From Eledone cirrhosa (lineage: Eukaryota): a stretch of 64,000 bases of DNA. Below are positions 6,128-60,651 of the stretch, in pieces. Both the position numbers and the translations under genes were made by a program. The DNA lies in contig OZ024742.1 of assembly GCA_964016885.1 (NCBI GenBank), positions 248,682,001 through 248,746,000 on the forward strand. Reading direction: 5' to 3'. Below the pieces are notes generated by a model that ran no database searches, was not told where the DNA came from, and saw only the letters and a program-made list of their open reading frames with translations. Position 1 is the first letter of the stretch. Each line of letters starts with the position of its first letter.

Positions 6128-6189
6128 TATTGTATCTGATGAGGGCGTACCAAAAATGTTGGTACCCTTGAAATATATATAATAAAATA
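6128..6189 (+). ncRNA. Minimal type I hammerhead ribozyme
   Basis: TATTGTAT CTGATGA GGGCGTACCA aaaatgt TGGTACCCTT GAAA TATATA TA ATAAAATA, with palindromic stem III. A degenerate paralog (CTTATGA) lies at about 24889-24952. Confidence 0.65.
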
Positions 6190-8173: not shown

Positions 8174-8233
8174 TTTCATTTACCATTGGTTTCTTGAAAG
8201 CAAACAAATTTGCTTTCAGTCATCAGAATGAAA
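8174..8233 (-). ncRNA. Type I hammerhead ribozyme
   Basis: TTTCATT CTGATGA C TGAAAGCAAA tttg TTTGCTTTCA A GAAA CCA a TGG TA AATGAAA: 7-bp stem I, 10-bp stem II, GUA cleavage triplet. Confidence 0.8.
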
Positions 8234-8635: not shown

Positions 8636-8678
8636 GTCAAAGTTCTTTCGTCACACATTCTGTGACCTCTTCAGTGAC
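8636..8678 (-). ncRNA. Minimal hammerhead-like motif
   Basis: GTCA CTGAAGA G GTCACA gaatg TGTGAC GAAA GAAC TT TGAC. A related copy lies at about 9842-9883 (-). Confidence 0.55.
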
Positions 8679-8799: not shown

Positions 8800-8842
8800 G
8801 TCACTGAAGAGGTCACATAATGTGTGACGAAAGAACTTTGAA
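8800..8842 (+). ncRNA. Minimal hammerhead-like motif (mirror copy)
   Basis: GTCA CTGAAGA G GTCACA taatg TGTGAC GAAA GAAC TT TGAA. Confidence 0.5.
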
Positions 8843-8989
8843 AATATATAAACAACCATCTGGTTGTGGAACCAACCAACCAACCGGAAATTTATAAATT
8901 CCTAAATTTATAAATTTATTATAATAAATTGAAAGGAAAAGCAACTGGTGCGTGTGTTTCTTATTTGCAACATTACCCTCCCAAAGTAT

Positions 8990-9730: not shown

Positions 9731-10007
9731 ATACTTTGGGAGGATCATGTTGCCAATAAGAAACACACGCAGCAGATGCTTTCAATTTATAAATTTCCGG
9801 TTTGTTGGTTGGTTCCACAACCAGATGATTGTTTATATATTGTCAAAGTTTTTCATCACACATTCTGTGACCTCTTCAGTGACTGGGGATTCTTTTCTTT
9901 GTTTTGGGGCCTCTCCTTTGTTCTGTCCTACGACCCTCCCAAAGTATAACAATATCGGTTTCAACACACGTTTTCAGATAAAGAATCTTGCTAAACAAAT
10001 TCAGAAA

Positions 10008-15808: not shown

Positions 15809-15875
15809 TATTTTATTATACATATTTCAGAGGTACTGAGTTAAGTTCAACAGTACGTCCTCATCAGATAAAATA
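15809..15875 (-). ncRNA. Minimal type I hammerhead ribozyme 3' of a decayed PLE
   Basis: TATTTTAT CTGATGA GGACGTACTG ttgaacttaact CAGTACCTCT GAAA TATGTA TA ATAAAATA, with a perfect 8-bp stem I. Confidence 0.75.
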
Positions 15876-21136: not shown

Positions 21137-22943
21137 ACCCTACAAACGTACCTAACCCGAGTCAATTTCCTGGACGTTACCCTTAACCTCGATAATTATC
21201 TGTACTACCCATACAGGAAACCAAAGAAGCTGCACTAAATCCACCGCCACTCTAACCATCCTAGAAACATCACCAATACCTGGTTGAAAACATCTCCCTC
21301 CGCAAATCTCTTTTGTCCGCTAATGAGCAGATGTTCGACGAACACGCGCCTCATTACAACCAGGCCCTCAAGCGGAGTGGCTTCCGGGAGGAAATATCCT
21401 TTTATCCAGCTTCCCTTAGCGGATCCAGCAGGCGACACCGCCGCTCACGCAACGTAACGTGGTTCAATCCCTCCCCATAATGCCGAGGTGGCAACAGCTA
21501 TCGAGAAAATCTTCTTTAGACTCCTCGAAAAACACTTTCCACTACAACACCGCTACCACAACATAATCAACAAAAACACCATCAAACTCTCCTACAGCAC
21601 CACACCTAACTCCGCACAAAACATCGTCTCCTTAAACAACAAAAAACTCAACCCCTATGGAAGAAATAACCTAGACATCAGTGGAGAGCCGACCAGGAGG
21701 TGTAACTGCCCTGATAGATCTACGTGCCCCCTCTACAACAAATGCCGAGAACGTAACGTGATCTACCAGTGCAACGTGAGGACGGACACCTCCAACAAAG
21801 CTTATATAGGATTAACCGCGTGTGACTTCAAGACCCGGCTCTACCAACACCGACATACTTTCCGAAACCCGGTCCGGTGACATACCACTACACTTTAGGG
21901 CCACATCTGGGACCTCCAAGATAATAATATAACCTACAATCTCACTTGGAGCTTACTGCCACAAACTAACTCTTACACGGGAGGACGCCGTCCGTGTAAC
22001 TTATGCTCGGAGGAAACATTACAAATGCTGTTTTCGAAGGACCAACTCCTAAACAAGAAAGAGGAACTGGTAACCGCATGCAAACACAGATTGCGTAGGT
22101 CTTACCTCGACCTCAAACCCCATAACGACCCGGGTGGGTAGACAAGGGCTGATACCCCCTACTTGCCGAATAAGTTATGGGAAACCCAGTTTACTTAGGT
22201 AGATGTATCTCTTTTCCTTTCTTTTCCTCTATGTCTTCTTCTTCCCCCTGTCTCATCCTATCACTTCTTTCCACCCACTATTTTCTTCCTCGTCTGCTTT
22301 TCCCCTTAGCTTACCCCGATGCATCCCATCGGGCCTATGTAGCATCAGTTCCCCCACCCCTGTAATCTTAAGATAGAATTGGCCGAATACGTTATACTAA
22401 CTACTTATAGCAGACGAGTTAAACCCCTTTAATTCTGTATCAGTTCTGGTACTACTCAATTTCTACAAGTTCTTTCTATTCTCAACTTATTAATCTGTAA
22501 CTGTAAGATAGCATTGTGATTTTTTTTATTAATTTCTCACTATCTAATTTTATATATTTTTTTTTTTTATTATTTCTTTCTATTATATTTTATTGTCTCC
22601 TACTCTCATTCGATTTACCTATTCTATAACCTCCCTCCTCCACTTCATACTCTATCTTCAGAGTCTGCTGTATACATATCACTTTCAACGCTTGACCGCT
22701 CCTGTCACTCCCCTATTGTTCTACAGGCAAGTTCAGCCACCCCTACCTTCCACCAAATGCCATGATAGAATTATTTGTGTTTACAACAAATTTTAACCAA
22801 TACTCTTGACAACTACAATCTTCCCATATGAGGAAGTACCCCCTTGAAAAGTTCGGCAATTTATTCACCAGGCTAAAAATTCTAATTTAGTCCAGAAATA
22901 GCCGTCAAAACGGCTTGAGCTCTGCCGTTGGTGTCATACTTTT

Positions 22944-27703: not shown

Positions 27704-30700
27704 GCCATTGAAAAGAAATATGGAGAATCGATCTAACAGCACTAGGGTTAGAGCCCCTAATTACACTGTCAAGGAGCAGCCTGGTCGTTATGACTCTGCT
27801 GGCTTAGAGCCACAGAGAGGGCCAGTGGATGATGGATCAGCTGTCTCTGAGACAAATATAAAGAATGCAGTTTTGTCCTGCAGAAGAGCCATCAAAATGG
27901 GCACTTTGAATGTGAGGACTATTCGAACGCTGGAGAAGAGAGAGGAGTTGGTACATCTGTTCGAGGAGAGTGGTATACAGATACTTGCGATCCAAGAACA
28001 CAGGATTCTACACGATGAGCCTGTGAGGAGTGTGATGATCGGGAGGAAGAGCTAGCTCATCACTACATCGGCAGTGAAGAACACAACAAATGCTGCAGTA
28101 GGAGGAGTGGATTTTGTGTTCAGTGGAAAAACCAATCTGTTGGTGAGGGAAATAATGCCTATCTCCCCGCGAGTGTTGAGGGTGACCTTCAATGGAAACC
28201 CAAGACTGACAGTCATCTCAGCCTATAGTCCAACCGAGGGGGACAGTGATGTGAATTTTGAGGAGTTCCATGAGGAGGTGTGTAGAGCTGTCAACACCAC
28301 TCAGGCACACAATATCCTGCTTGTTTTGGGGGACTTCAATGCACATCTGAGTAAGGAGGGCAGTGAAGATCCTTGCTGGTACTTCCATAACAACACCAAC
28401 CGAAATGGAAGACTACTGAGAGACACCCTGCTGGAGGCGAACTTGATGGCGACCAACCTAAGGTTTAGGAAGAATCTGGGGAAGATGTGGACCTACATCT
28501 CAGATATGCACCTGTCCAAGTCCCAGATTGATTTCATTCTGGTGAGGAAAAAGTGGCGGAATAGTGTTCTGAACACGGAACCATACAGCTATTTCAGTAC
28601 ACTGGGTAGTGACCACCGGCTTGTTATGAGTGAGGTCCGCGTGAGCTTAAGAAAGAGCAAAGCTCAGCCCCGGAGAACAATCTATGACTGGGGAGCTTTC
28701 AAGGAAGATGATAAGCTACAGGAGAGGTTCACAGTGGAAGTGAGAAACAGGTTTAGTGCTCTGTGTGGAGAGTCAGAGGAGAGAGAGATTGGATGGACTG
28801 AGGAGAGTGTGACGAGGAGGTACGGGCACTTCACCAATGCAGTGGCGAAAGCAAGTGAAACCCTGGTGCCGAGGAAAAAGAACAAAGGGAAGCACGTCAG
28901 CTCTGCAAACCCAAAAGTGTGTGCAGCCAGAGAACACCTGAAAGCTGCCAGGGACCAATTCTATGCTGATCCTACGGAGGAGAGGATGGAGACTGTGGAG
29001 GTGATGAGGGAAGGGCTCTGTACCGGTTACACTGCGGTCAGAGAGGAGGCACTGATAGAGAAGATCAGAAGTGTGGAGAGAGCGGTTGACAGATCTGGAT
29101 GTAAGGAGAGCTGGATGATCATCAACGAGATCACAGGGAGGAAGAAAAGGTGTTCGAGTCAGATCCAGGGAACGGGGCCCGAGGATAGGAAGAGGAAATG
29201 GCTAGACCATTTTAGGACCCTACTAGGAGAGCCACCCTCCACAGCCCAGAGCTCTGGGGAGATCAGGCGGCTGTTTGAGGAACTGGATGTTGAGACAGAG
29301 CCCTTCATCAGAGAGGAGCTTCAGAGAGCCAAGAGGAAGATCAAGGAGGGCAAGGCTCATGGAGAAGATGGAGTGGCATCAGAGGTGATGAAGAGGTGTG
29401 ATTTTGATGATATCATCCTGGGGTTCTGTAACGGGGCACTGGAGAAAGGAGTTGCCCCGAATCAGTGGAGGATCAGTAACATCGTCCCAGTGCCAAAGAA
29501 GGGAGATCTCTCTAACACCAACAACTACCGGGGGATCTCACTGACGTCACTTGTGGCAAAGACCCTCAACGGGATGATTCTTAACAGGATCCAGCCTGAG
29601 ATGGAGAAGAAGCTCAGGGACAACCAGAACGGCTTCAGAGAGGGTAGATCAACCACCTGTCACATCCTGATGCTGAGGAGGATATTAGAGGGAGCTAGAG
29701 AAAAGTGCCTACCTGCGGTCATGGTTTTCATTGACTTTAGGAAGGCCTTTGATTCTGTGGACCGTTACTGCCTGATGAAGATCTTACAGGCTTATGGAAT
29801 CCCCAAGAGGATAGTGGACCTGATATCACTGCTCTACACCAACACCAAAGCCCAAGTCATTACACCTGATGGGATGACAGAGTTCTTTGAGATACTGGCT
29901 GGAGTGCTCCAGGGAGATACATTGGCTCCCTACCTTTTTATCATCGCAGTGGACTATTGTATGCGCCTTGCACTGGAGAAACACCAGGACTCTGGCTTTA
30001 CTGTAGCACCGGCTCAGAGCAGGAGAGTTGGGGCGAAAAAGGTATCAGATGCTGAATTTGCCGACGACATAGTTTTGGTGACAAATACAGTGAAGGAGGC
30101 AGAGGATTTGATGCGGGAGGTTGAGACTGTGTCGATGAGTGTGAGGCTGAGAATGAATGAGACTAAAACAAAATATCTGGTAGAGAATGTTGAGAAGCCA
30201 GAGAGGATCACTAATGTAGGCGGGAAGCCGTGGAATTGGTTGAGGACTTCCTGTATTTGGGAGCAAAGATTGGGAATACGGAAGATGATGTGGTTGAGAG
30301 GAAGAGCAAGGCCTGGGCGGCGTGTCACAGCTTGAGATCGGTGTGGAAGTCGGACCTTCTTAGAGACCTGAAAATCCGCCTCTTCATTGCTGTAGTGGAG
30401 TCTGTGCTGCTGTATGGGTCTGAGACTTGGACACTGACCAAGAGACTCACTCAGATGGTGGATGGGTGCTACACGAGAATGCTGAGGATGGCTCTGAACA
30501 TTAATCAGTATACACTGAGGATGAAAAACTCAGAGCTGTATGGGAGCATCCCAAAAGTCAGCTCAAAAATGACACAGAGGAGACTGAGGTTGGCTGGACA
30601 TGCTCACCGACATCCAGAGTTGACATTGCACTCAGTGCTCCTTTGGGAGCCCCTACATGGACACACTAGAAGAGGAAGACCAAGGTTAACATATGTTGAT

Positions 30701-30818
30701 GCCCTAAGGACAGACACTGGTCTGTTGGAGATGCAGGATATGGCAGCGATAATGAGGGACAGAGACCACTGGAGAGAACTCGTCCATGGATCTCGGGAAT
30801 TTTACCCGCCTTAGATAG
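27704..30818 (+). mobile_element. Near full-length RTE-group (RTE/RTEX) LINE inserted in (TA)n
   Basis: Purine-rich block, much more GC-rich than its surroundings, bounded by (TA)n on both sides. The stop codon runs directly into TAGATAGATATATA. Confidence 0.95.
27720..30814 (+). pseudogene. APE endonuclease / reverse transcriptase ORF (about 1030 aa) with two lesions
   Basis: APE motifs GTLNVRT, IQEHR, SAYSPT, GDFNAH, IDFIL, SDH. RT motifs PKKGD, YRGISL, QNGFR, DFRKAFDSV, GVLQGD, FADD, YLG. C-terminal YGSETW, RRLRLAGH, RGRP. In-frame TAG at 28053-28055 and a 1-nt frameshift near 30230. Confidence 0.95.
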
Positions 30819-34967: not shown

Positions 34968-35010
34968 ACGATGTACTAGTTTCAAGCTTATTTGATATCG
35001 TCAGCATCGT
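34968..35010 (-). ncRNA. Minimal type I hammerhead ribozyme
   Basis: ACGATG CTGACGA TATCAAATAAGCTT GAAA CTAG TA CATCGT: 6-bp stem I, palindromic stem III, stem II mutated. Confidence 0.7.
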
Positions 35011-35329: not shown

Positions 35330-35372
35330 ACGATGCTGACGATAGCTAATAATCTTGAAACTAGTACATCGT
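35330..35372 (+). ncRNA. Minimal type I hammerhead ribozyme (mirror copy)
   Basis: ACGATG CTGACGA TAGCTAATAATCTT GAAA CTAG TA CATCGT. The consensus of both copies gives stem II AGCU-aaua-AGCU. Confidence 0.7.
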
Positions 35373-43814: not shown

Positions 43815-44171
43815 ATGTGTGTGTGCGTGCGCGCGTGTGTGTGTGTGTGTATGAGTGTGTGTGTGTGTGTTAGTGTGTGTGTGTACATATATATATATAG
43901 ATATATTTAATCAATAACAGAGATAGTTTAAAGCTAAACTCTGACTGGTATCCATCTCACTCATATATATATATACCAATAATTTTTCTGCATATGCTGA
44001 TACACTAACTTCGATTCTACTTACGCTATTTAAACTCAGCTGCCTTATTTCTGGAATGCAACACAATACGAAAGAGACATCGTAAGAGCATCGAGTGTTC
44101 CGTCCGGCGCGCCGCCTGCAGCTAGTTATACGCACCTACATAGCATATACGTATAATATATATATGCATAT

Positions 44172-44277
44172 ATGTTACTGATGAATGAAGACGGACATAA
44201 GTATCAAGCTCTTCAAGAAACCACTGGTAAATGAATTAATTATTTTATGTTGTTTATTACATAATTATATAAATATA

Positions 44278-44321
<44 letters not shown>

Positions 44322-44420
44322 TAGTTATGTAATAAATAACATAAGATAATTAATTCATTTACCAGTGGTTTCTTGCAGCGCTTGATACTTATGGCCGTCT
44401 TCATTCATCAGTAAAAAATG
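44172..44420. repeat. Convergent inverted pair of HHR-bearing fragments around (TA)n
   Basis: CTGATGA..GAAACCACTGGTAAATG at 44178-44233 (+) and its reverse complement at 44356-44411 (-). Same family as 8174 and 52401. Confidence 0.75.
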
Positions 44421-44433
44421 TTATTATTGAATG

Positions 44434-44462
<29 letters not shown>

Positions 44463-44471
<9 letters not shown>

Positions 44472-45213
44472 GTAAGAAACACAGTAAACCGTGTGTCTAA
44501 AATTACAAGGGTTGAAAAACCACATTTGTTTGAAATATTTAACCAAGAAGCAGACAGAATGATAACATATACAAACCGCCTCAATAACCATTATATCTCT
44601 CGGACAGATTATCCCTAATCTGTTTCGCCCTGAGTGTGTTTGTAACAGATAATCCTGGGCTTCATCAGCGAGAGATTCTGATTAAATGCCACAAACACTA
44701 TTTGCCAACGTTCACACAGAAAGATGAATTTGTCACCTCGTGCTCCGCTAGTCAAACGTGGTAAGCGTGTATTAAATAGAAATAGAAATAACAGTCCAAC
44801 ACACGCAACTTAATAAGCTCAACTTGTGAGGGAGCAGAAATATATGAAAATTAGAGTTAACACTCAATTGGAACCCTGCAACTATTAAGCTCCAAGTATA
44901 AATACTGAGCTGATAAATAATATATAGTAAGAAACAGTAAACCGTGTGTCTAAAATTACAAGGGTTGAAAAACCACATTTGTTTGAAATATTTAACCAAG
45001 AAGCAGACAGAATGATAAAATATACAAACTGCCTCAATAACCATCTGTCTGCTTCTTGGTTAAATATTTCAAACAAATGTGGTTTTTCAACCCTTGTAAT
45101 TTTAGACACACGGTTTACTGTGTTTCTTACTATATATTACTTATCAGCTCAGTATTTATACTTGGAGCTTAATAGTTGCAGGATTCCAATTGAGTGTTAA
45201 CTCTAATTTTCAT
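44463..45213. mobile_element. Retrozyme-like 453-bp unit: about 1.28 tandem copies (-) plus an inverted partial copy (+)
   Basis: 44463-44591 is repeated at 44918-45044. About 45044-45213 is the reverse complement of about 44842-45011. (TA)n on both sides; canonical HHR inside. Confidence 0.8.
44595..44676 (-). ncRNA. Canonical type I hammerhead ribozyme with GUC site
   Basis: ATCTCTCG CTGATGA A GCCC..GGGC GAAA CAGATTA ggga TAATCTG TC CGAGAGAT: 8-bp stem I, 7-bp stem III, predicted cleavage between 44603 and 44602. Confidence 0.9.
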
Positions 45214-45441
45214 ATATATATATAGTTTTTGGTAGTTAAAACGTACGACGAGCGCTGCTAATTGTATTCAATTGTAAAATTCTAATCGCAAGCATCTTTT
45301 TAACTACACTTGATTTGTTTACATATATATGGCTTTTAATATGAAAGCATTTAATTTAACGGAGTAATACGTTGCTACAAACGTTTAGCTAACTTACCTC
45401 GAAATTAAGAGGTGTATGTATGTATGTATATATATATATAT

Positions 45442-46048
45442 GTCAGGTCACCAGTTGGTGCTACTGGTAACATGTATCCCAGTACAACCTGTATCATGGT
45501 CGGGTCGTTGGCGACTAAACTGGCAACCCCACCAAAGTTTCTTGGCGAGGAGGGTGACTTTGGACATCCCGCAGGACTAAAAACAAAACCTGTCAAAGGG
45601 CAAAGAGCTCTTAAGCGTCAATGACCATCCAAAATTACCGGGAGAGATGACCCCTTAGCCTTTGTCAAGGCAGAATTCTAGGAGAAGGAAAACTCTGATA
45701 TAACACCTGCAACCCTGATGGTATCCAATGATGTTGACTTGTTCTTCTTTTTGGTAAATACCATCTTGGTTAAGAGAGTGGGACTGGATTTGTGCAGTGC
45801 CTTTGCTCACTATAAAAGCTTCACGGCACAGGCATTGCTTTATATCTGGAGATCTCTCTGCACTTGTCGTCACATCGTACCATGGGTCTAGCACTATGTG
45901 TCAATAATTGTCACAGGTGTAGTGTTTGTACCAGAGTTTTCAAGTCGCTGGCTGGACTAAAAAGTCACACTTGTTTAGCGCATCGGTAGGGGTTCTCCTA
46001 CATGGATATAAAGTAGTGGCCGTACTCGAAAACGAGTTGGCAGCCACC
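45442..46048 (+). mobile_element. Bipartite RTE-derived non-autonomous element (about 607 bp)
   Basis: Contains the RTE 5'UTR-type motif CTAGGAGAAGGAAAACTCTGA. The 3' part encodes [20 protein letters not shown] (C2H2 finger like an RTE ORF C-terminus) and ends in the hairpin ACTCGAAAACGAGT. Confidence 0.8.
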
Positions 46049-46479
46049 ATATATATATATATATGTGTGCATGTATGTATGTATGTATCTGTGTATGTAT
46101 ATATTTATGTATGTTTCTCTTTCTCTTAATTTCTATGTATGTATGTATATAGGTATGTGTGATTGTATGTATGTAAGCATGTATACATATATGAATGTTT
46201 GTTTGTAGGTATGTAGGTATGTATGCATAAGTGTGCGCATGGGATTCAGCCCTGAGGGTTATGATCTCATGTTTGCATGGTTATAAGTTCGATTCCCGTA
46301 CAAGGCACGGCATTCATTCCTTGAGCGAGACACTTTATTTCAGATTGCTCAAGTCCATTCAGATCCTTAATACTGGGGGAGTTCTTTATTAATTTGATGT
46401 TGAACTCCTCGGTCGAAGAGTATGGCTTTCCATGTCAATCTACGTTCTCTAATTTCCAATTTTTCATGAAGCCTTTAGA

Positions 46480-48430
46480 GAAGCAGATGTTGATTTGTTT
46501 CGGTATATTCCGTAAGAATTTAATGGATGCCATTCACACAATAGCACTTAAGGTAACAATAGACACGAACTTCTATAATGCCAATTCCCTCGATATTAGC
46601 TTAGACTCAATCACATGATGAAAAAACCATATGAGAAAACTAATGAAAAATTAAAATATATTAACATAGTATCTTGACCCCCACAATGTTGTTAAAATCA
46701 TCATAATGTATAATAGCAGTTATAGGATCTGAAACCTCCCAGCCTCTAAGGAGCTATTGAATAAGCTTGCGCCATTCTACAATAATACACTCATAGATTG
46801 TAGCTTCAAAGACAAAAAATTAAGTACGAACCCAATCAACTCCATCGCAAAAAATACTAATAATTGAAACTGAATATTTACCTGGCTCCATCCTATTCTT
46901 CTAACGTAAAAACAAATTAAGGTAAGAAATTCCAAGATCTAATTCATAAACATTTACCAGTACAATGTGTTCCTCTATTTACCTTTATAAAGTACTGTTA
47001 TTTGTACACTTTTATTTTTTTTACGTGTTCTAATTCCCTATAGTTGTCTAAGCACAGCTTGATGGAAGATAATATTAGAGAAAACCAATGAAGAATGACA
47101 TGATGCTGAATCAAAACAAAAGCAATATATACAAACACACACACACCGACCACAAGTAAATATGGAATGATACGCGACGCCATCACTCCCTACCCCACCA
47201 CAGCCCCGGCGGTCAGAATGGAGAAATGGAGAAGGCGTTTCCCCGAGGACAGCAAGGGAGACGCGCTGGAAAAGCCACTGCAACCCGCGGGGCCCACACC
47301 TGCGGCTGGCCAGCTCAGCGCCTATGGTGATGAGTAGGGAGGTAGCCCTAGGGCCAAAGACACCAGAAGTCTCCACTGCCAGGGGCACAACCACAAACCT
47401 ATCGGAGAGCGACCGGTATTTGAGGAGTTTAGCCCCCTCAGCCCGACGTGCAGCAGAACCTGGGTTAATAGCAGACTGCACCAGGTTGCGGCTGCAGAAA
47501 GTGTCTGTGCAAGTAGCATCCCAGACGAGGGGTTTGCCATCGCAGAACGGGAAGATGGTCATGTCATCTGGCCTTTTGCCGTTCCCTTGGTCCAGCCCCA
47601 CCGGCACGAGCTGGGAAGGGAAGCCTGCAGCGTCCAAGCCATGCTTTATGCCCTCGTTGAGGGCAGATATGGTGTGGAAGGCAGCCGGCACTGTGGAGAT
47701 AGGAAAGTGGGTGGAGGCCGAAAGTGTCTACGGTGGATCCGCAGCGACACTGGTGTGGCTCGCAGATCCGGAGGCCGAGCCTCAAGGAAACGCCAATGCG
47801 CAGGCTATTATTGTCTAGCTGCGTACCAGTGGAGAGGGAGGGCAGGCCATAGAGCCAGACACCACTGTGGCGTTTGGAGGTCACACGAAAACAGGCAAGG
47901 CGGTGCTGGTCGAGTTGGCGCGTGAGCCTGTCTGAGGCCAGGCTTCTCTGGATGGCATCCCAGTACAATATAGGTAAAGTAAAATATTCAATCGAAGTTT
48001 TCTGACGATATCCTAATCCTGCAGCCCTTCTATGTGCTCGAAAATTACCAACTTAATATAAATCCAGACTGCTCTTGCAGGATTAATGAGAAAGGCCATC
48101 TACAACACCTGTGTAATATACAATTTATCTTTTGAAAGGCAGATATCATACATGCTGCTATAGATAATACAGGTTTCAGTTAAAGATGTATGGTGCATGA
48201 TCGTTTTAAAGAACGAGTTTACTTGCATTCTACACTCCTTTAGATATCCTGAAATTTGAACCAACACAACCCTGGCGAAAATAATCTGACAGTTAAAGGA
48301 TAAAAGAATCCCACATGAAATAACATGGTAAATACTTGAGAATTCCCAAACTTAGAAGATCAATATAACAGATGCTACTTCAACCTCATTGATAAATTTA
48401 AGATTTTACAAATTCTGTCTTCTGCAAAGA
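46480..48430 (+). mobile_element. Decayed Penelope-like element split by a CRE-like insertion
   Basis: LKVTIDTNFYNANSLDISLD..PYEK.NEKLKYIN. Removing the insert restores IHKHLPVQ|YR*SKIFNRSFLTIS*SC, the KHFP..KIFN..ISYSC motif. Confidence 0.7.
46967..47959 (-). mobile_element. 5'-truncated CRE-like non-LTR retrotransposon (zinc knuckle plus RLE) with 10-bp TSD
   Basis: SGVWL..LRLG..CRCG..FGLHPLS / ALN..GKRPDDMT..LVWDATCTDT..AE..K..KY..VPLAVETSG..LFQRVSLAV, with a frameshift between the two ORF pieces. TSD CCAGTACAAT at 46957-46966 and 47960-47969. Confidence 0.85.
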
Positions 48431-48670: not shown

Positions 48671-49264
48671 TGGTGCTACTGGTAACATGTATCCCAGTAC
48701 AACCTGTCCCATGGTCGGGTCGTTGGCGACTAAACTGGCAACCCCACCAAGGTTTCTTGGTGAGGAGGGTGACTTTGGACATGCTGCAGGACTAAAAACA
48801 AAACCTGTCAAAGGGCAAAGGAGCTCTTAAGAGTCAATGGCCATCCAAAATCACCGGGAGAGATGACCCCTTAGCCTTTGTCAAGGCAGAATTCTAGGAG
48901 AAGGAAAACTCTGATATCACACCTGCAACCCTGATGATATCCAATGATGTTGACTTGTTCTTCTTTTTGGTAAATATCATCTTGGTTAAGAGAGTGGGAC
49001 TGGCTTTGTGCAGTGCCTTTGCTCACTATAAAAACTTCACGGCACAGGCATTGCTTTATATCTGGAGATCTCTCTGCACTTGTCGTCACATGGTACCATG
49101 GGCCCAGCACTATGTGTCAATAATTGTCACATGTGTAGTGTTTGTACCAAAGTTTTCAAGTCGCTGGCCGGACTCAAAAGTCACACTCGTTCAGCGCATC
49201 GGTAGGGGTCCTCCTACATGGATATAAAGTAGTGGCCGTACTCGAAAACGAGTTGGCAGCCACC
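48671..49264 (+). mobile_element. Bipartite RTE-derived non-autonomous element
   Basis: Near-identical to about 45455-46048; flanked by (TA)n. Confidence 0.85.
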
Positions 49265-49671
49265 ATATATATATATATATATTTCGATAATGAATACCAC
49301 GAACTTGCCAGTCACGTAGGTCTGATATTTCATTTCGTATTCAAAGAAACACTTTAAACGATTAATCGTTTGATTTGTCCAGGTGTATTTTTCTCAACTT
49401 GTTAGTTCTATCGTTGTATTGTGTGTTAGATTTGCCTACCACAATGTTCGATTTGTCAAGCTATTTAAACATATGTTATTACTCTAAGGCCCTAACGTAT
49501 CGGGTGCTTTGTTAATTCATCATTTCATATAAGTAGGCTGAATTTACTTGCAAACCGCCAGAGATTCGATTTTACTAAATTTCCAATTATATATATATAT
49601 ATACATTCGTGCTATTAAGGTAGACATGGCCTGGACCAATACTGGCCGAAACCTATCAAAGTTATCAAAGT

Positions 49672-51528: not shown

Positions 51529-52357
<829 letters not shown>

Positions 52358-52400: not shown

Positions 52401-52460
52401 TTCCATTTATCAGTGGTTTCTTAAAAGCAAAAATGTTTGCTTTCAATCATCAGAATGAAA
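52401..52460 (-). ncRNA. Hammerhead ribozyme (same family as 8174; stem III mismatch)
   Basis: TTTCATT CTGATGA TTGAAAGCAAA catt TTTGCTTTTAA GAAA CCA c TGA TA AATGGAA. Confidence 0.65.
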
Positions 52461-52471
52461 AAATCCTGGTC

Positions 52472-53060
52472 TCTTCTCTTTTAAATCTACACTTATTTTT
52501 ACCTTTTATATTATTAAACCAAGAAATAACAGAGGAAGTATTTAACCACTGTGATAGGTCAGTGTTAGTTCTAATTTGGAGAATTATTTTTCTTAAGATT
52601 TTTTTACTTGCAAGGCCAACTTCGGATTTAGCCGGGTTAATCAGTCTACAACTAGGTCGATTAGTAAAGTCCAATTTATGGTCTTTAAGGGTAATATATT
52701 CTTTACTCTTAGCTAGGCTTTCAATCCGGTTGTCTATTTTTAAAGAACTAGCTAGTTCTTTAGCTTCTTTATTAATAGTATTGTAGGTATTATTATTAGT
52801 TAATTGATATTTGTTGGTGATACTATTAGTTAAAAGTTGGTTATACAAAGTACTATTAACTTCAAAGAGATTTTTAGTTTTATCAGAAAGAACAAAGGTG
52901 TTTGTAGAATTTCTAAAATTAGAAATATCGTTAGACAGTTTAGTTTGAAAGTTATTATTGTACTTACGAAATTTGATATCACTAATTAAATTAACAAGGT
53001 CTAATTCCAAGTTGGCCATGTCTTTAATTCTAGGTGGATATTTACGGGATTTTATGTCAA
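52472..53060 (-). mobile_element. Penelope-like element, N-terminal RT region (open frame of about 185 aa)
   Basis: IKFRK.NNNFQ.KL..DI, SDKTKNLF, ITLKDHK.DF.NRPSCRLINPAKSEVG.ASK.IL and QW.NTS.VI.WF, typical of PLE RT N-terminal motifs. Confidence 0.85.
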
Positions 53061-55419
53061 AACAATCATTAGTATCAGTAAAATCAACAGGTGTAAGTCA
53101 ACAGGTTGAAATTAACATCGTTTATTCATATTCGCCGTTAAATATATTTCGGTGATAACCATTATTCCCATTATTCAACAGCCAGAACCTGAACAGAAAT
53201 AACAGAAAAAACATAATGATGGAACAATGTTTACCACTGTTATTTCGATCTTTTGATATGCCCAATCTCGAAATATGGTGTTATTTTCTCACCAGATCTT
53301 TGAGAAAACACCACCATGCTGGGCGTACCAAAAGATCGAAATAAGCAAGGTAAACGTTTTTCCATCATTATATTTTTCTGTTGTTTTTTCTAGCTGTCTG
53401 ATGAGGCCATAGCTGTTGAATAATGGTTATCGCTGATATATCAATAAGTTAATATTAACCTGTAGACTTACACTTGTTGTTTTTAGATTACTCCAAAGTA
53501 GACAGTCCCACCTGCGCACCTCGTTGAGTGCTCTACTCAGCATACTGAAGTGTCTGTAACTAACCATATAGTGTGTGTGTGTGTGAGAGAGAGAGAGAGA
53601 TATGTGTGTGTATATATATATATACAAAGAGAGAGAAATTCTCCGTCTTGTTCTATTTTTCTATTGAATTATGTACTATATGATCGTGCACGAATGTTAA
53701 ATGCCAACATATAGACCGCCTTTATTTGCATATATATACATCCTTAAATGTGGTCATAGTCACACTGAGAAATTAATTCATGCGGCCTATCTTCTAGTAT
53801 TTCTCCGTTGACAGAAAAAGAACGATGAGTCATTGAGAATATATCAAAATCTATTTCCAAATAGAATCAGATCGTTTACCGTTTATCATTCTGCAGATAA
53901 ATACGTAAAAAAACACACGTTAGCATGTACATACTTTAGCATAGATCAGTTAATTTGTTTGTATACGTGTGCATTTAGATATGTGTATTGTTTCTGTCCT
54001 ACATTTTATCCATTTCCAATGCAAGGTCCACCAATGGATGCGACCGAGTTATAGTTCTAGTCGACATATAATTCTAACTGATATTGGAGATTTATCGCTG
54101 TTTTTCCAGCCATAACTTCATTTTATCCTGTTATAGAAAACCCAGAGCTAGTAGGTCGAGGTCAGAATATAAATGAACCGGTTACGGAAATTCATTCCAC
54201 TTGAGGTTCATATAATTCAACCAAACAATCGCTGTGGTCAGGTATATTATTTATCGAACCAATTAGGATGGAGGCAACGTCAATTTCAAAAATAAGCGAG
54301 CCGCATCAAATGCAAAAATTCATTCTGTCTTACGCTCTACCGATGTATTTTTATTTATTTAGCATATGAAATCAGTAAATCATTTTCCAAACGATAGGAG
54401 TAATATTTTAGAGAATAAATACATACGTGTATATGCCCACATAATATATATGAACGTCTTTATTAACATATATGTAAGGGTATATATGTATGGATATATC
54501 TGCTTGTGGATATGTATGAGTTAATAATGAGTTACCAATTCAAATCAAGACAAATGATAAATACACTAGATATACAATTCTAATGAAGTTACTGTATAAA
54601 CTAATAATATTCATGCCTAAAAGGTTCGTTATTTCCCTCATCTAGTCGACATTTTCCTCCTAGAGTGTATATCTCCTCTTAACTATCATTCATAATACCA
54701 GAAAGGAGAAAGGTGTATTTAATTTCGTTACTGAAATGTAGAACATTAAATAGTGACAAATTTTCTTAGTCTCTTTTATAAATGTTATTCTACACAAAGA
54801 AAAACCCACACTGTACGTCCTGTATCATCTTTAATGTTTCCTGAATGTGAGCCTTGTGTTGCTAATAAAGAAATCAATATTACACACCACAGGTTGCTGA
54901 ACATAATTTGTTGATGAACGAATTTAGAAGAGGTTCTTACACATAAATACCGTGTTTTTGGAGAACATTTTGAAGAAAAATGATTGTCTTATGCAGCTCT
55001 ACTCATATATAAATTGTTTGTGTAGTGTACATATTTCATATTATAAATACTATTATATCAATATATTTGGGGTAAAAGTATATTTGTCTTATCCCACAGA
55101 AAATGAGGTAGCTTCAGACGAAAAAAAAAATCTATTGGATTCTTCAATCTAAAGTATGCATTAGAATAGTAAATTCGGGGTGCCTAATTTATTGAAATGT
55201 GATAGCTGTATACGTAAGGTTTTCAATGGCCGAAGACATAATGGGCGAATCAAATTGAATAACGTAATGCATATACATTAAATTCCAGATGAATTAGTAA
55301 GGAAGACGTCATGAAATACATACGATATTTAAACCTGACATAGACTGTCCCTCTCCACGTCCGAACGTAGCCAACTTATTTTAGAGAATCAAGGATTGGA
55401 AGCGAGAAAACGAGAGAGC

Positions 55420-57217: not shown

Positions 57218-57283
57218 TTTTATTATATATATTTCGAATACAAAATCATCGTGGGACAGATGTTGTGTTCTCTTCAGATAAAA
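57218..57283 (-). ncRNA. Minimal type I hammerhead ribozyme
   Basis: TTTTAT CTGAAGA GAACACAACATC tgtcccac GATGATTTTGTATTC GAAA TATATA TA ATAAAA. Confidence 0.7.
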
Positions 57284-58149: not shown

Positions 58150-59050
58150 TGTGTATCAGAGTTGCAGAACCTTCAATTCACTTACGGGTTCAAGCCACGT
58201 GGCATGGTTCATTGTTTACCTGTGCGGTCATGTGCGTTTGTTTTTGACACCACAGCAGATGCACAAGTTCGTAAATTCCTATACAGATAGAAATCTATTT
58301 TTGCTCACCCGGACATTGACGGAGGATCCAATATTCCTAGTTCAATATGTGTGTGGTGTTATTTTGGTCGCACAAATCAATCACTTGGTTCAATATTATG
58401 GAGTAGGGTTTTCTGGTCTTCGTAACAGTGTCAGTGGTTGTATATCTGGAAATCACAAGGATCACAGTACTCCGGTTTGGTGTGATTATCGGTCATCCAG
58501 CTATGTTGTTGGTGGTTGGATTCAATTCTATTCGCCCGAACGTTGAACTTTGGTGTCGATAGGACATTAACGATATAGTTATATTAATATATATTAATAT
58601 AACTATATTCCCCTGCCTCAAGTATCATGTATTCTTTTGAGTAATGGTCAAACCAGTTTCAAACTGAATACGTCCTGATATATATATTCTCCATGTGTGT
58701 TTATTTTCATAATTCCGCACGAGGTGCACTCGCCTGCTTTTAAATTCCCTTTCCGGCATATTTTAGCAATGGATGGGTATCATGTTTTGAGCTCTACTGA
58801 TGAACGACTCCAACCGTGACTATTCCCACTGAAATGTTTCGTGAAATAGTCTTGTTTAAGACTATATAGAGCATTTGTAGTTTTTCCAATTTGAAGGATG
58901 AGTATTTGAACTTTATTTTATTCTGATTTAAGACTCTATTGGTTTTTTCCCGGATTTCACAAAATCTGTGGATAAAATGTCTGTCTTGACTTTTTTTTTT
59001 AAATTGAGTTTGAATTATTTTCCCATATCTTACGTTAGATATTTTCCATC
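58150..59050 (-). mobile_element. Possible highly decayed PLE coding remnant upstream of the 57.4-kb HHR
   Basis: Only short motifs (HFIHRF, HP.H.., RRPEN) and its position 5' of an HHR; weak support. Confidence 0.3.
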
Positions 59051-60115: not shown

Positions 60116-60651
60116 GACAAACATAGAATATTCGAAAATATTCTGTATGTTTATAATAAACATTTTGAAGACCCAATCGCTATAGAATAGAATACGTCAC
60201 GTATTACAATTTGAGATTCTCGATAAAAGCAAGGGAAGTAACCTACGCGTTTCATTCTTATTAGAAATCATCAGGATTACATATCCAATGCTTTTATCGA
60301 GAACGACACAGCTAGAGACTTATAGAATACTTAGCTGTGTACAGGAACTGGTTTGAAAGAGCGGTACCCGGTCCGGCAGAAATTAGAATTTGGATTTAAT
60401 GCTCTGAAATAGCGATATATATGTGAAGACAAACATAGAATATTCGAAAATATTCTGTATGTTTATAATAAACATAATGAAACGCGTAGGTTACTTCCCT
60501 TCCTTTTATCGAGAATCTCAAATTGTAATACGTGACGTATTCTATTCTATAGCGATTGGGTCTTCAAAATGTTTATTATAAACATACAGAATATTTTCGA
60601 ATATTCTATGTTTGTCTTCACATATATATCGCTATTTCAGAGCATTAAATC

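Follow-up and report, generated by a model that had tools for sequence, protein, structure and literature searches.

Metazoan non-LTR retrozymes, known from coral, mussel and axolotl, are presented in the parts of two papers used here (Cervera and de la Pena 2020, PMC7229834; Li, Clavereau and Pollet 2026, bioRxiv 10.64898/2026.07.22.740005) as non-coding tandem units of a few hundred nucleotides, each with one type I hammerhead. They are of low GC content (<50%), occur both as dispersed monomers and as arrays, and have been proposed to depend on Penelope-like elements. The element described here, from Eledone cirrhosa, resembles them in all of these respects. However, its unit lies at the top of their 150-450-nt range, and its hammerhead has a 7-bp stem III, a 26-nt loop II and a predicted long helix between loop II and the 5' flank in place of the loop 1-loop 2 contacts. 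The usual loop contacts are likewise missing from the mussel hammerheads (PMC7229834). Expression and circles have been shown for the published retrozymes and are putative for the Eledone element.

Another close system is the group of pseudoknotted hammerheads (Perreault et al. 2011, PMC3088659), which includes the human C10orf118 ribozyme with its 5-bp pseudoknot. As far as the part of that study used here describes them, Watson-Crick pairs join the stem I and stem II regions, stem II is short, and the position of the pairing is tied to the lengths of the stems, as in Eledone. The published pairings span ~4-6 bp, whereas those in Eledone span ~14-22 nt with internal loops, use the 5' flank of a type I motif, and belong to an animal retroelement in which activation is putative. 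A third system comprises the hammerheads of Penelope pseudo-LTRs (Cervera and de la Pena 2014, PMC4209133; Craig et al. 2021, PMC8557442; Frangieh et al. 2024, PMC11167929). In the portions of these papers drawn on here, the metazoan versions are minimal forms without stem III that act as dimers, unlike the Eledone motif with its full stem III. The Eledone unit also differs from Penelope-like elements in having no ORF, and in a gap between its two ends of 73 or 47 nt, against the 30-40 nt published.

The repeat unit and its hammerhead motif

The window, a stretch of 64,000 nucleotides of the E. cirrhosa assembly (contig OZ024742.1), holds a copy of the element with a single hammerhead (Table 1). 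The motif is placed at the end of a 453-nt unit, with a 132-nt partial unit after it and an inverted arm before it. No ORF of at least 120 aa is found at 44460-45217, and the GC content of 44001-46000 is 0.35.

Table 1. Features of the Eledone element and of related sites, in window coordinates.
Feature	Position	Strand	Basis and remarks
Type I hammerhead motif	44595..44676	minus (44676-44595)	sequence, folding; stems I and III covary across families
Stem I, 8 bp	44676-44669 with 44602-44595	minus	sequence
Core CUGAUGA	44668-44662	minus	sequence
Extra A between A9 and G10.1	44661	minus	sequence; U, A, C or 2-3 nt in sister subfamilies
Stem II, 4 bp	44660-44657 with 44630-44627	minus	sequence
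Loop II, 26 nt	44631..44656	minus	sequence; kept in older subfamilies
Parts of loop II	2-nt spacer; GAUUA (44654-44650); UC; 12-nt strand (44647-44636); 5-nt linker (44635-44631)		
GAAA	44626-44623	minus	sequence
Stem III, 7 bp plus A15.1-U16.1, GGGA cap	44622-44605	minus	sequence
Loop III GGGA	44612..44615	minus	reverse complement of the TCCC loop of a sister subfamily; supplies 2 of the 7 pairs of the originally predicted match
GUC, predicted cut	44603/44602	minus	sequence
5' flank strand complementary to loop II	44680..44698	minus	12 nt (44698-44687), 2 nt unpaired, UAAUC (44684-44680); 3 nt from stem I
Full non-coding repeat unit, 453 nt	44592..45044	minus	self-comparison; 457 nt in a 7-hammerhead array elsewhere
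Partial second unit (unit positions 1-132)	44460..44591	minus	ends in (TA)n at 44436-44471
Inverted arm (unit positions 34-205)	45044..45217	plus	ends in a short (TA)n run
CUGANGA...GAAA matches, several folding as minimal Penelope-type hammerheads	6136-6173, 8646-8674, 8804-8843, 9851-9879, 15825-15867, 34980-35004, 35336-35360, 57232-57277, 60250-60274		

The core CUGAUGA, GAAA and GUC, the 8-bp stem I and the 7-bp stem III with its GGGA cap, all named in the original prediction, are confirmed both in the letters and in the fold. When a 102-nt piece is folded, the three stems have pair probabilities of 0.90-1.0 (z -2.6; 3/200 shuffles fold equally well). The features of a type I hammerhead are found together, with CUGANGA, GAAA and NUH at a three-way junction and stem I open, plus one extra A after A9. 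In an alignment of 26 rows, stem I is paired in 96% of cells with two-sided changes at 5/7 pairs, and stem III in 91% with such changes at 4/7. For stem II, the same cross-family alignment gives 76% paired and a two-sided change at 1/4 pairs. In copies selected by stem III alone, the shared core changes are located at the free position 7.

This is a real hammerhead motif, predicted to be self-cutting, but the label of textbook hammerhead does not fit it, because of the extra A (44661) and the 26-nt loop II. Rfam does not recognize it either: the window has no match at the gathering score, the best score for the motif is 14 bits with HH9 against a gathering score of 52, and no other hammerhead family, HH10 included, is listed. 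The search with Hammerhead_1, suggested as a check, gave no match to the motif at E up to 10. Matches to Rfam miRNA families were discarded, as they correspond to the hairpin formed with the inverted arm and score below gathering. An extra nucleotide at the place of A44661 is a mark of Penelope-element hammerheads (part of PMC4209133), and a viroid hammerhead tolerates one there, with A mildly or moderately slowing the reaction and U making it faster (part of PMC3705267). The motif has a full stem III, and hammerheads built in this way are expected to cleave as monomers, so that this part of the original prediction stands at the level of the predicted fold. So does its contrast with the minimal hammerheads of Penelope-like elements, in which stem III is absent or has 1-2 bp with a palindromic loop, against 7 bp here.

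The element is abundant. In the 3.0-Gb assembly there are 229 exact matches to the stretch from core to stem II, 391 to stem III with GGGA, and 463 copies of the same stem III with another loop (pattern search), with 0 in the control in each case; these and the family counts are lower bounds. The window copy has one hammerhead, and at least two consecutive complete units exist elsewhere in the genome, in an array of 7 hammerheads at 457-nt spacing whose first 6 units are identical. Four sequencing runs (contigs, one study) added only variants.

The insertion sites carry the Penelope-like signature of an inverted arm, two fixed 3' ends (the tail) and a microsatellite target. Among 60 loci, 41 of 42 insertion sites have ends abutting (TA)n near unit position 132, 179 or 205. 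Each of the 18 two-armed sites has arms with unlike ends (16 at 132 and 205, 2 at 132 and 179); 4 of these sites are found within 250 kb and might have arisen from a single site by duplication. The ends of the element merge into (TA)n, hiding any target-site duplications. Inverted arms and a (TA)n bias are known from Penelope-like elements (part of PMC8557442), and for a purified Penelope protein two internal start sites plus a tail are described, together with cutting of AT-rich DNA and extension of both strands (part of PMC11167929).

Because of its insertion into (TA)n with Penelope-type inverted arms and fixed ends, the element, a young non-coding tandem repeat, likely belongs to a known class, the non-LTR retrozymes, and is likely mobilized by Penelope. 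A tandem transcript would be cut once per unit into monomers of ~455 nt, which might be circularized by a host ligase. Reverse transcription by a Penelope-type protein would then begin on each strand of the nicked (TA)n target, with start points 143, 190 or 216 nt downstream of the cut site, and could cross several units. An internal Pol III promoter was considered and rejected: the sister subfamilies do not keep the A-box-like match at 44750-44739, no good B box is visible by eye, and the unit contains T5 runs. Close to the element, 45456-46050 and 48671-49265 are 95% identical copies of a ~600-nt non-coding repeat, each between (TA)n runs.

A comparison covering one intact family yielded no autonomous element sharing the retrozyme unit, and 170 loci showed no consistent adjacent ORF. 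A very abundant family has intact 784-aa ORFs in tandem at 3531-nt spacing (locus L201, 1756-4107 and 5287-7638, plus strand), which by their motifs look like a Penelope-type reverse transcriptase plus a GIY-YIG-type domain. These ORFs have no Pfam match, and the 8-kb locus has no CUGANGA...GAAA match at 8-50 nt spacing. The family was rejected as the partner, as it has neither sequence in common with the unit nor a hammerhead of the present class. Pieces of Penelope ORFs near 7 other loci look like separate insertions. Other retroelement pieces in the window, at 21458-21880 (+), 52450-53097 (-), 28056-30814 (+) and 47038-48052 (-), comprise fragments of Penelope-type ORFs, a LINE whose endonuclease and RT domains are recognized by Pfam, and one more fragment resembling a retroelement.

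Complementarity between loop II and the 5' flank

Folding of the whole unit assigns loop II a partner outside the motif. UAAUC of the 5' flank pairs with GAUUA of loop II, followed by a 2x2 internal loop and 12 bp between the remaining parts of both strands (Table 1). The duplex has an energy of -21.7 kcal/mol, and 0/200 shuffles are as good. Of the original prediction, the involvement of loop II in a second fold survives, with the 5' flank and not stem III as the conserved partner.

The pairing is also seen across families. In 8 diverged families, which share ancestry and are related along the unit, the assignment of each flank to its own loop ranks first among 40,320 permutations. This test used 33 rows chosen by eye after the flank-pairing results were known, with family F represented by one copy and one family D copy with a damaged flank (L159) omitted. 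The proximal part alone gives 2/40,320 for the own assignment, and with the full helix in the 5 most distinct families it is the best of 120. In a sequence-only alignment of 26 rows, the proximal pairs show two-sided changes at 7/7 positions and are 67% paired, a value due to the window's own family standing one column out of register. When the cross-family alignment was folded with RNAalifold, stems I and III were recovered, and neither stem II nor the flank helix.

Further hammerheads of the lineage were examined with a shuffle test on 24 pattern matches, drawn from 20 regions chosen among the 100 listed and from 3 loci. Here 10 of 13 were matched or beaten by at most 6/300 shuffles, with one damaged copy at 255/300, and 1/10 pattern matches without this architecture passed the same test. 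In the families examined, stem II has 2-4 bp, loop II 26-33 nt, and the complementarity spans ~14-22 nt with internal loops. Inspection by hand places the start of the helix 0-3 nt outside stems I and II. The core is largely free of its pairs, a short segment of loop II stays unpaired at the 3' end, and the distal pairs of the helix are kept in all families examined. Pairing of at least 4 bp that joins the stem I and stem II regions, the defining feature of a pseudoknotted hammerhead, is thus present as conserved complementarity, that is, as a predicted interaction. Another candidate partner of loop II, an AUAA(U) bulge 3' of stem I, was rejected, being lost in the AATCTC subfamily and displaced by the flank helix. 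A near-invariant U-purine-GUUA lies 3' of stem I (44586-44590, minus strand), with an equivalent in all families. It could be a pairing partner of the proximal flank strand, or else make a docking contact with the helix.

Two other families of the window have the same kind of hammerhead. The second hammerhead, of family B2, lies at 51922-51970 within 51872-52018 (minus strand), has a GUA site and many copies, and shows a flank-loop II pairing arranged as in the first motif, in different letters. The third family of the window, the ninth overall, lies at 58749-58896 (plus strand) and was found with a model holding only stems I-III. It has a 3-bp stem II starting with A-U, a 33-nt loop II and an AUA site, and is repeated in tandem every ~627 nt. 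In 18 distinct copies, the flank pairs with its own loop at a median of -19.4 kcal/mol, against -5.6 to -11.8 kcal/mol for cross-family pairs, one of which reaches -18.0. For 9 of the 18, at most 10/200 shuffles match the pairing, and the strongest pairs are distal.

The window has 22 CUGANGA...GAAA matches against 2.5 expected, several of which fold as minimal Penelope-type hammerheads (Table 1). Directly beside the element, at 44170-44419, there is a 125-nt inverted repeat around (TA)n, each arm of which contains CUGAUGA...GAAA followed by a conserved stretch. It represents another hammerhead-like family, one that does not fold as type I and is also present at 8190-8226 and 52417-52453 (both minus strand).

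Possible roles of the flank helix

The reading favored here, with moderate confidence, is that flank and loop II form a pseudoknot that braces the cutting fold of a retrozyme hammerhead. The proximal 5-8 bp of the helix would replace the usual contact between loops I and II and hold stems I and II side by side, with the unpaired 3' end of loop II acting as a return linker. A stem II of 2-4 bp would be too weak to close a loop of 26-33 nt unaided. The start of the helix just outside stems I and II fits such a pseudoknot. In other hammerheads, fast cleavage depends on 4-6-bp pseudoknots located at this place, as reported from mutations in part of PMC3088659. The distal pairs probably cannot all coexist with stem II and compete with it, because by geometric estimate a helix of 19 steps looks too long for the 5-nt return linker. 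Against a brace, the flank hairpin is ~9 kcal/mol better than the hammerhead in nested folding, the strongest pairs of the ninth family are distal, and the proximal flank strand is also able to pair with the conserved GUUA 3' of stem I.

A serious rival, given this folding preference and the probable competition of the distal pairs with stem II, takes the helix for an off state, or for one of the two states of a switch, a proposal that can be entertained only tentatively. The helix would form first during transcription, as both of its strands are made before stem II can close, and its full length (17 bp here) would keep the short stem II open. The slow or silent ribozyme would protect the circular RNA, and cleavage would need partial unzipping or a protein. 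Nested folding, which treats the flank helix as a competitor and is unable to display pseudoknots, is consistent with this. For the window motif plus flank, it gives the flank hairpin, without stems I and II, at -35.4 kcal/mol against -26.0, and stems I and II have probabilities of 0.00-0.05 in longer and circular contexts. The hairpin also appears in the fold of the 453-nt circle and in 5 of 9 family representatives. Compared with the 4-6-bp pseudoknots described in the part of PMC3088659 used here, the helix is much longer, and the conservation of its distal pairs also points to an off state. In the available portions of the literature, how animal retrozyme circles escape cutting is a stated open point (PMC7229834), and one Penelope hammerhead needed its protein for cleavage (PMC11167929).

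Against an off state, the pairing mostly avoids the core and stems, beginning at the outer ends of stems I and II, and the own-partner signal is carried by the proximal part alone. Moreover, an off state would leave the families with a 2-3-bp stem II without other support for the active fold, and viroids and plant retrozymes instead block the ribozyme with a complementary sequence (part of PMC7229834). A combination of both ideas, somewhat unlikely in our estimation, is a conserved two-state switch in which the proximal pairs would brace the active fold in transcription, and full zipping would open stem II and silence the monomer or circle.

It is improbable that the helix has a role apart from catalysis, being kept for compaction, for holding the cut ends for ligation, or as a site for the Penelope protein, with the hammerhead cleaving independently. 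Covariation demonstrates pairing and not purpose, and the part of PMC11167929 used here reports that hammerhead mutants had no effect on insertion by purified Penelope protein, which binds to structured RNA further downstream. However, its constant place next to the ends of stems I and II links the helix to the geometry of the ribozyme. Even less probable is that the hammerhead of this subfamily or copy is inactive, an inherited motif in an element that spreads without cutting. The extra A in the core, an addition that moderately slowed the viroid hammerhead (part of PMC3705267), and the lack of an Rfam match would agree with inactivity; the intact core, the covarying stems and the place of the window copy within the youngest clade, with a tip branch of 0.004, argue against it.

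The weakest reading, with very little left in its favor, is the off-switch of the original prediction, by which GAUUAUC of loop II (44654-44648) would pair with GAUAAUC (44613-44607), open stem III and stabilize a circle. The exact 7-nt complementarity between loop II and the stem III loop and 3' strand is indeed present. It extends to 9 pairs with two G-U (duplex -8.3 kcal/mol), and all 7 pairs are found in 25 of 27 distinct GGGA copies, with one more retaining them via G-U. A match of this length is mildly above chance, since 199/5000 shuffles of loop II (4%) give a match of 7 or more elsewhere in the motif. The forced fold lies 6.4 kcal/mol above the hammerhead (-20.9 vs -27.3), with a pair probability of 0.0001 that is ~0 in longer and circular contexts, and in the 27 distinct GGGA copies it is 6.4-15.4 kcal/mol worse. 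These energies are for nested folds. The interaction would also compete for the same bases with a local 8-bp hairpin and the 17-bp flank helix.

The switch had been tied to conservation of the loop II complementarity, and here it fails. In the sister subfamilies, loop II is almost unchanged, and loops III are TCCC, ATCCC, AATCTC or similar. Five Watson-Crick pairs persist in most of 29 scored sister copies, one more having no motif and the stem III side being required by the search pattern; the older subfamilies (463 copies) thus mostly have 5 pairs. The own-partner signal is absent, with 9357/40,320 permutations of the 8 families equally good. In a 40-row tree built without stem-loop III and rooted at the midpoint, the 12 GGGA rows form a clade with 100/100 support inside the TCCC/ATCCC clade, making GGGA a derived state. 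As GGGA is the reverse complement of TCCC, inversion of the loop is the simplest source of the two extra pairs. From these letters, GGGA probably arose by inversion of the loop III tetraloop in the youngest subfamily, and the 7-nt match would be a by-product of that inversion. Of the circular RNA invoked originally, what stands is that the element class is known to make such RNAs; the loop II-stem III fold meant to stabilize it does not.

Implications for animal retrozymes

In the literature searched (titles and abstract openings), no long helix between loop II and the 5' flank is described for retrozyme or Penelope hammerheads, and the word 'pseudoknot' does not occur in the available parts of PMC4209133 and bioRxiv 10.64898/2026.07.22.740005. 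What appears to be new is the predicted build of the ribozyme, with a loop II of 26-33 nt that is complementary to the 5' flank over ~14-22 nt. This complementarity has been maintained by compensatory changes in 8 or more diverged families of a single lineage, and Rfam misses the motif. A construct limited to 44595..44676 omits the flank and could give a misleading cleavage rate.

If the helix is a brace, animal retrozymes join the pseudoknotted hammerheads with an unusually long version, and such hammerheads are undercounted by standard searches. If the helix is instead a switch, the manner in which retrozyme circles avoid self-cutting, raised in the part of PMC7229834 used here, becomes directly testable, and a true two-state switch would provide an RNA-only answer to how the circles of animal retrozymes escape from being cut again.
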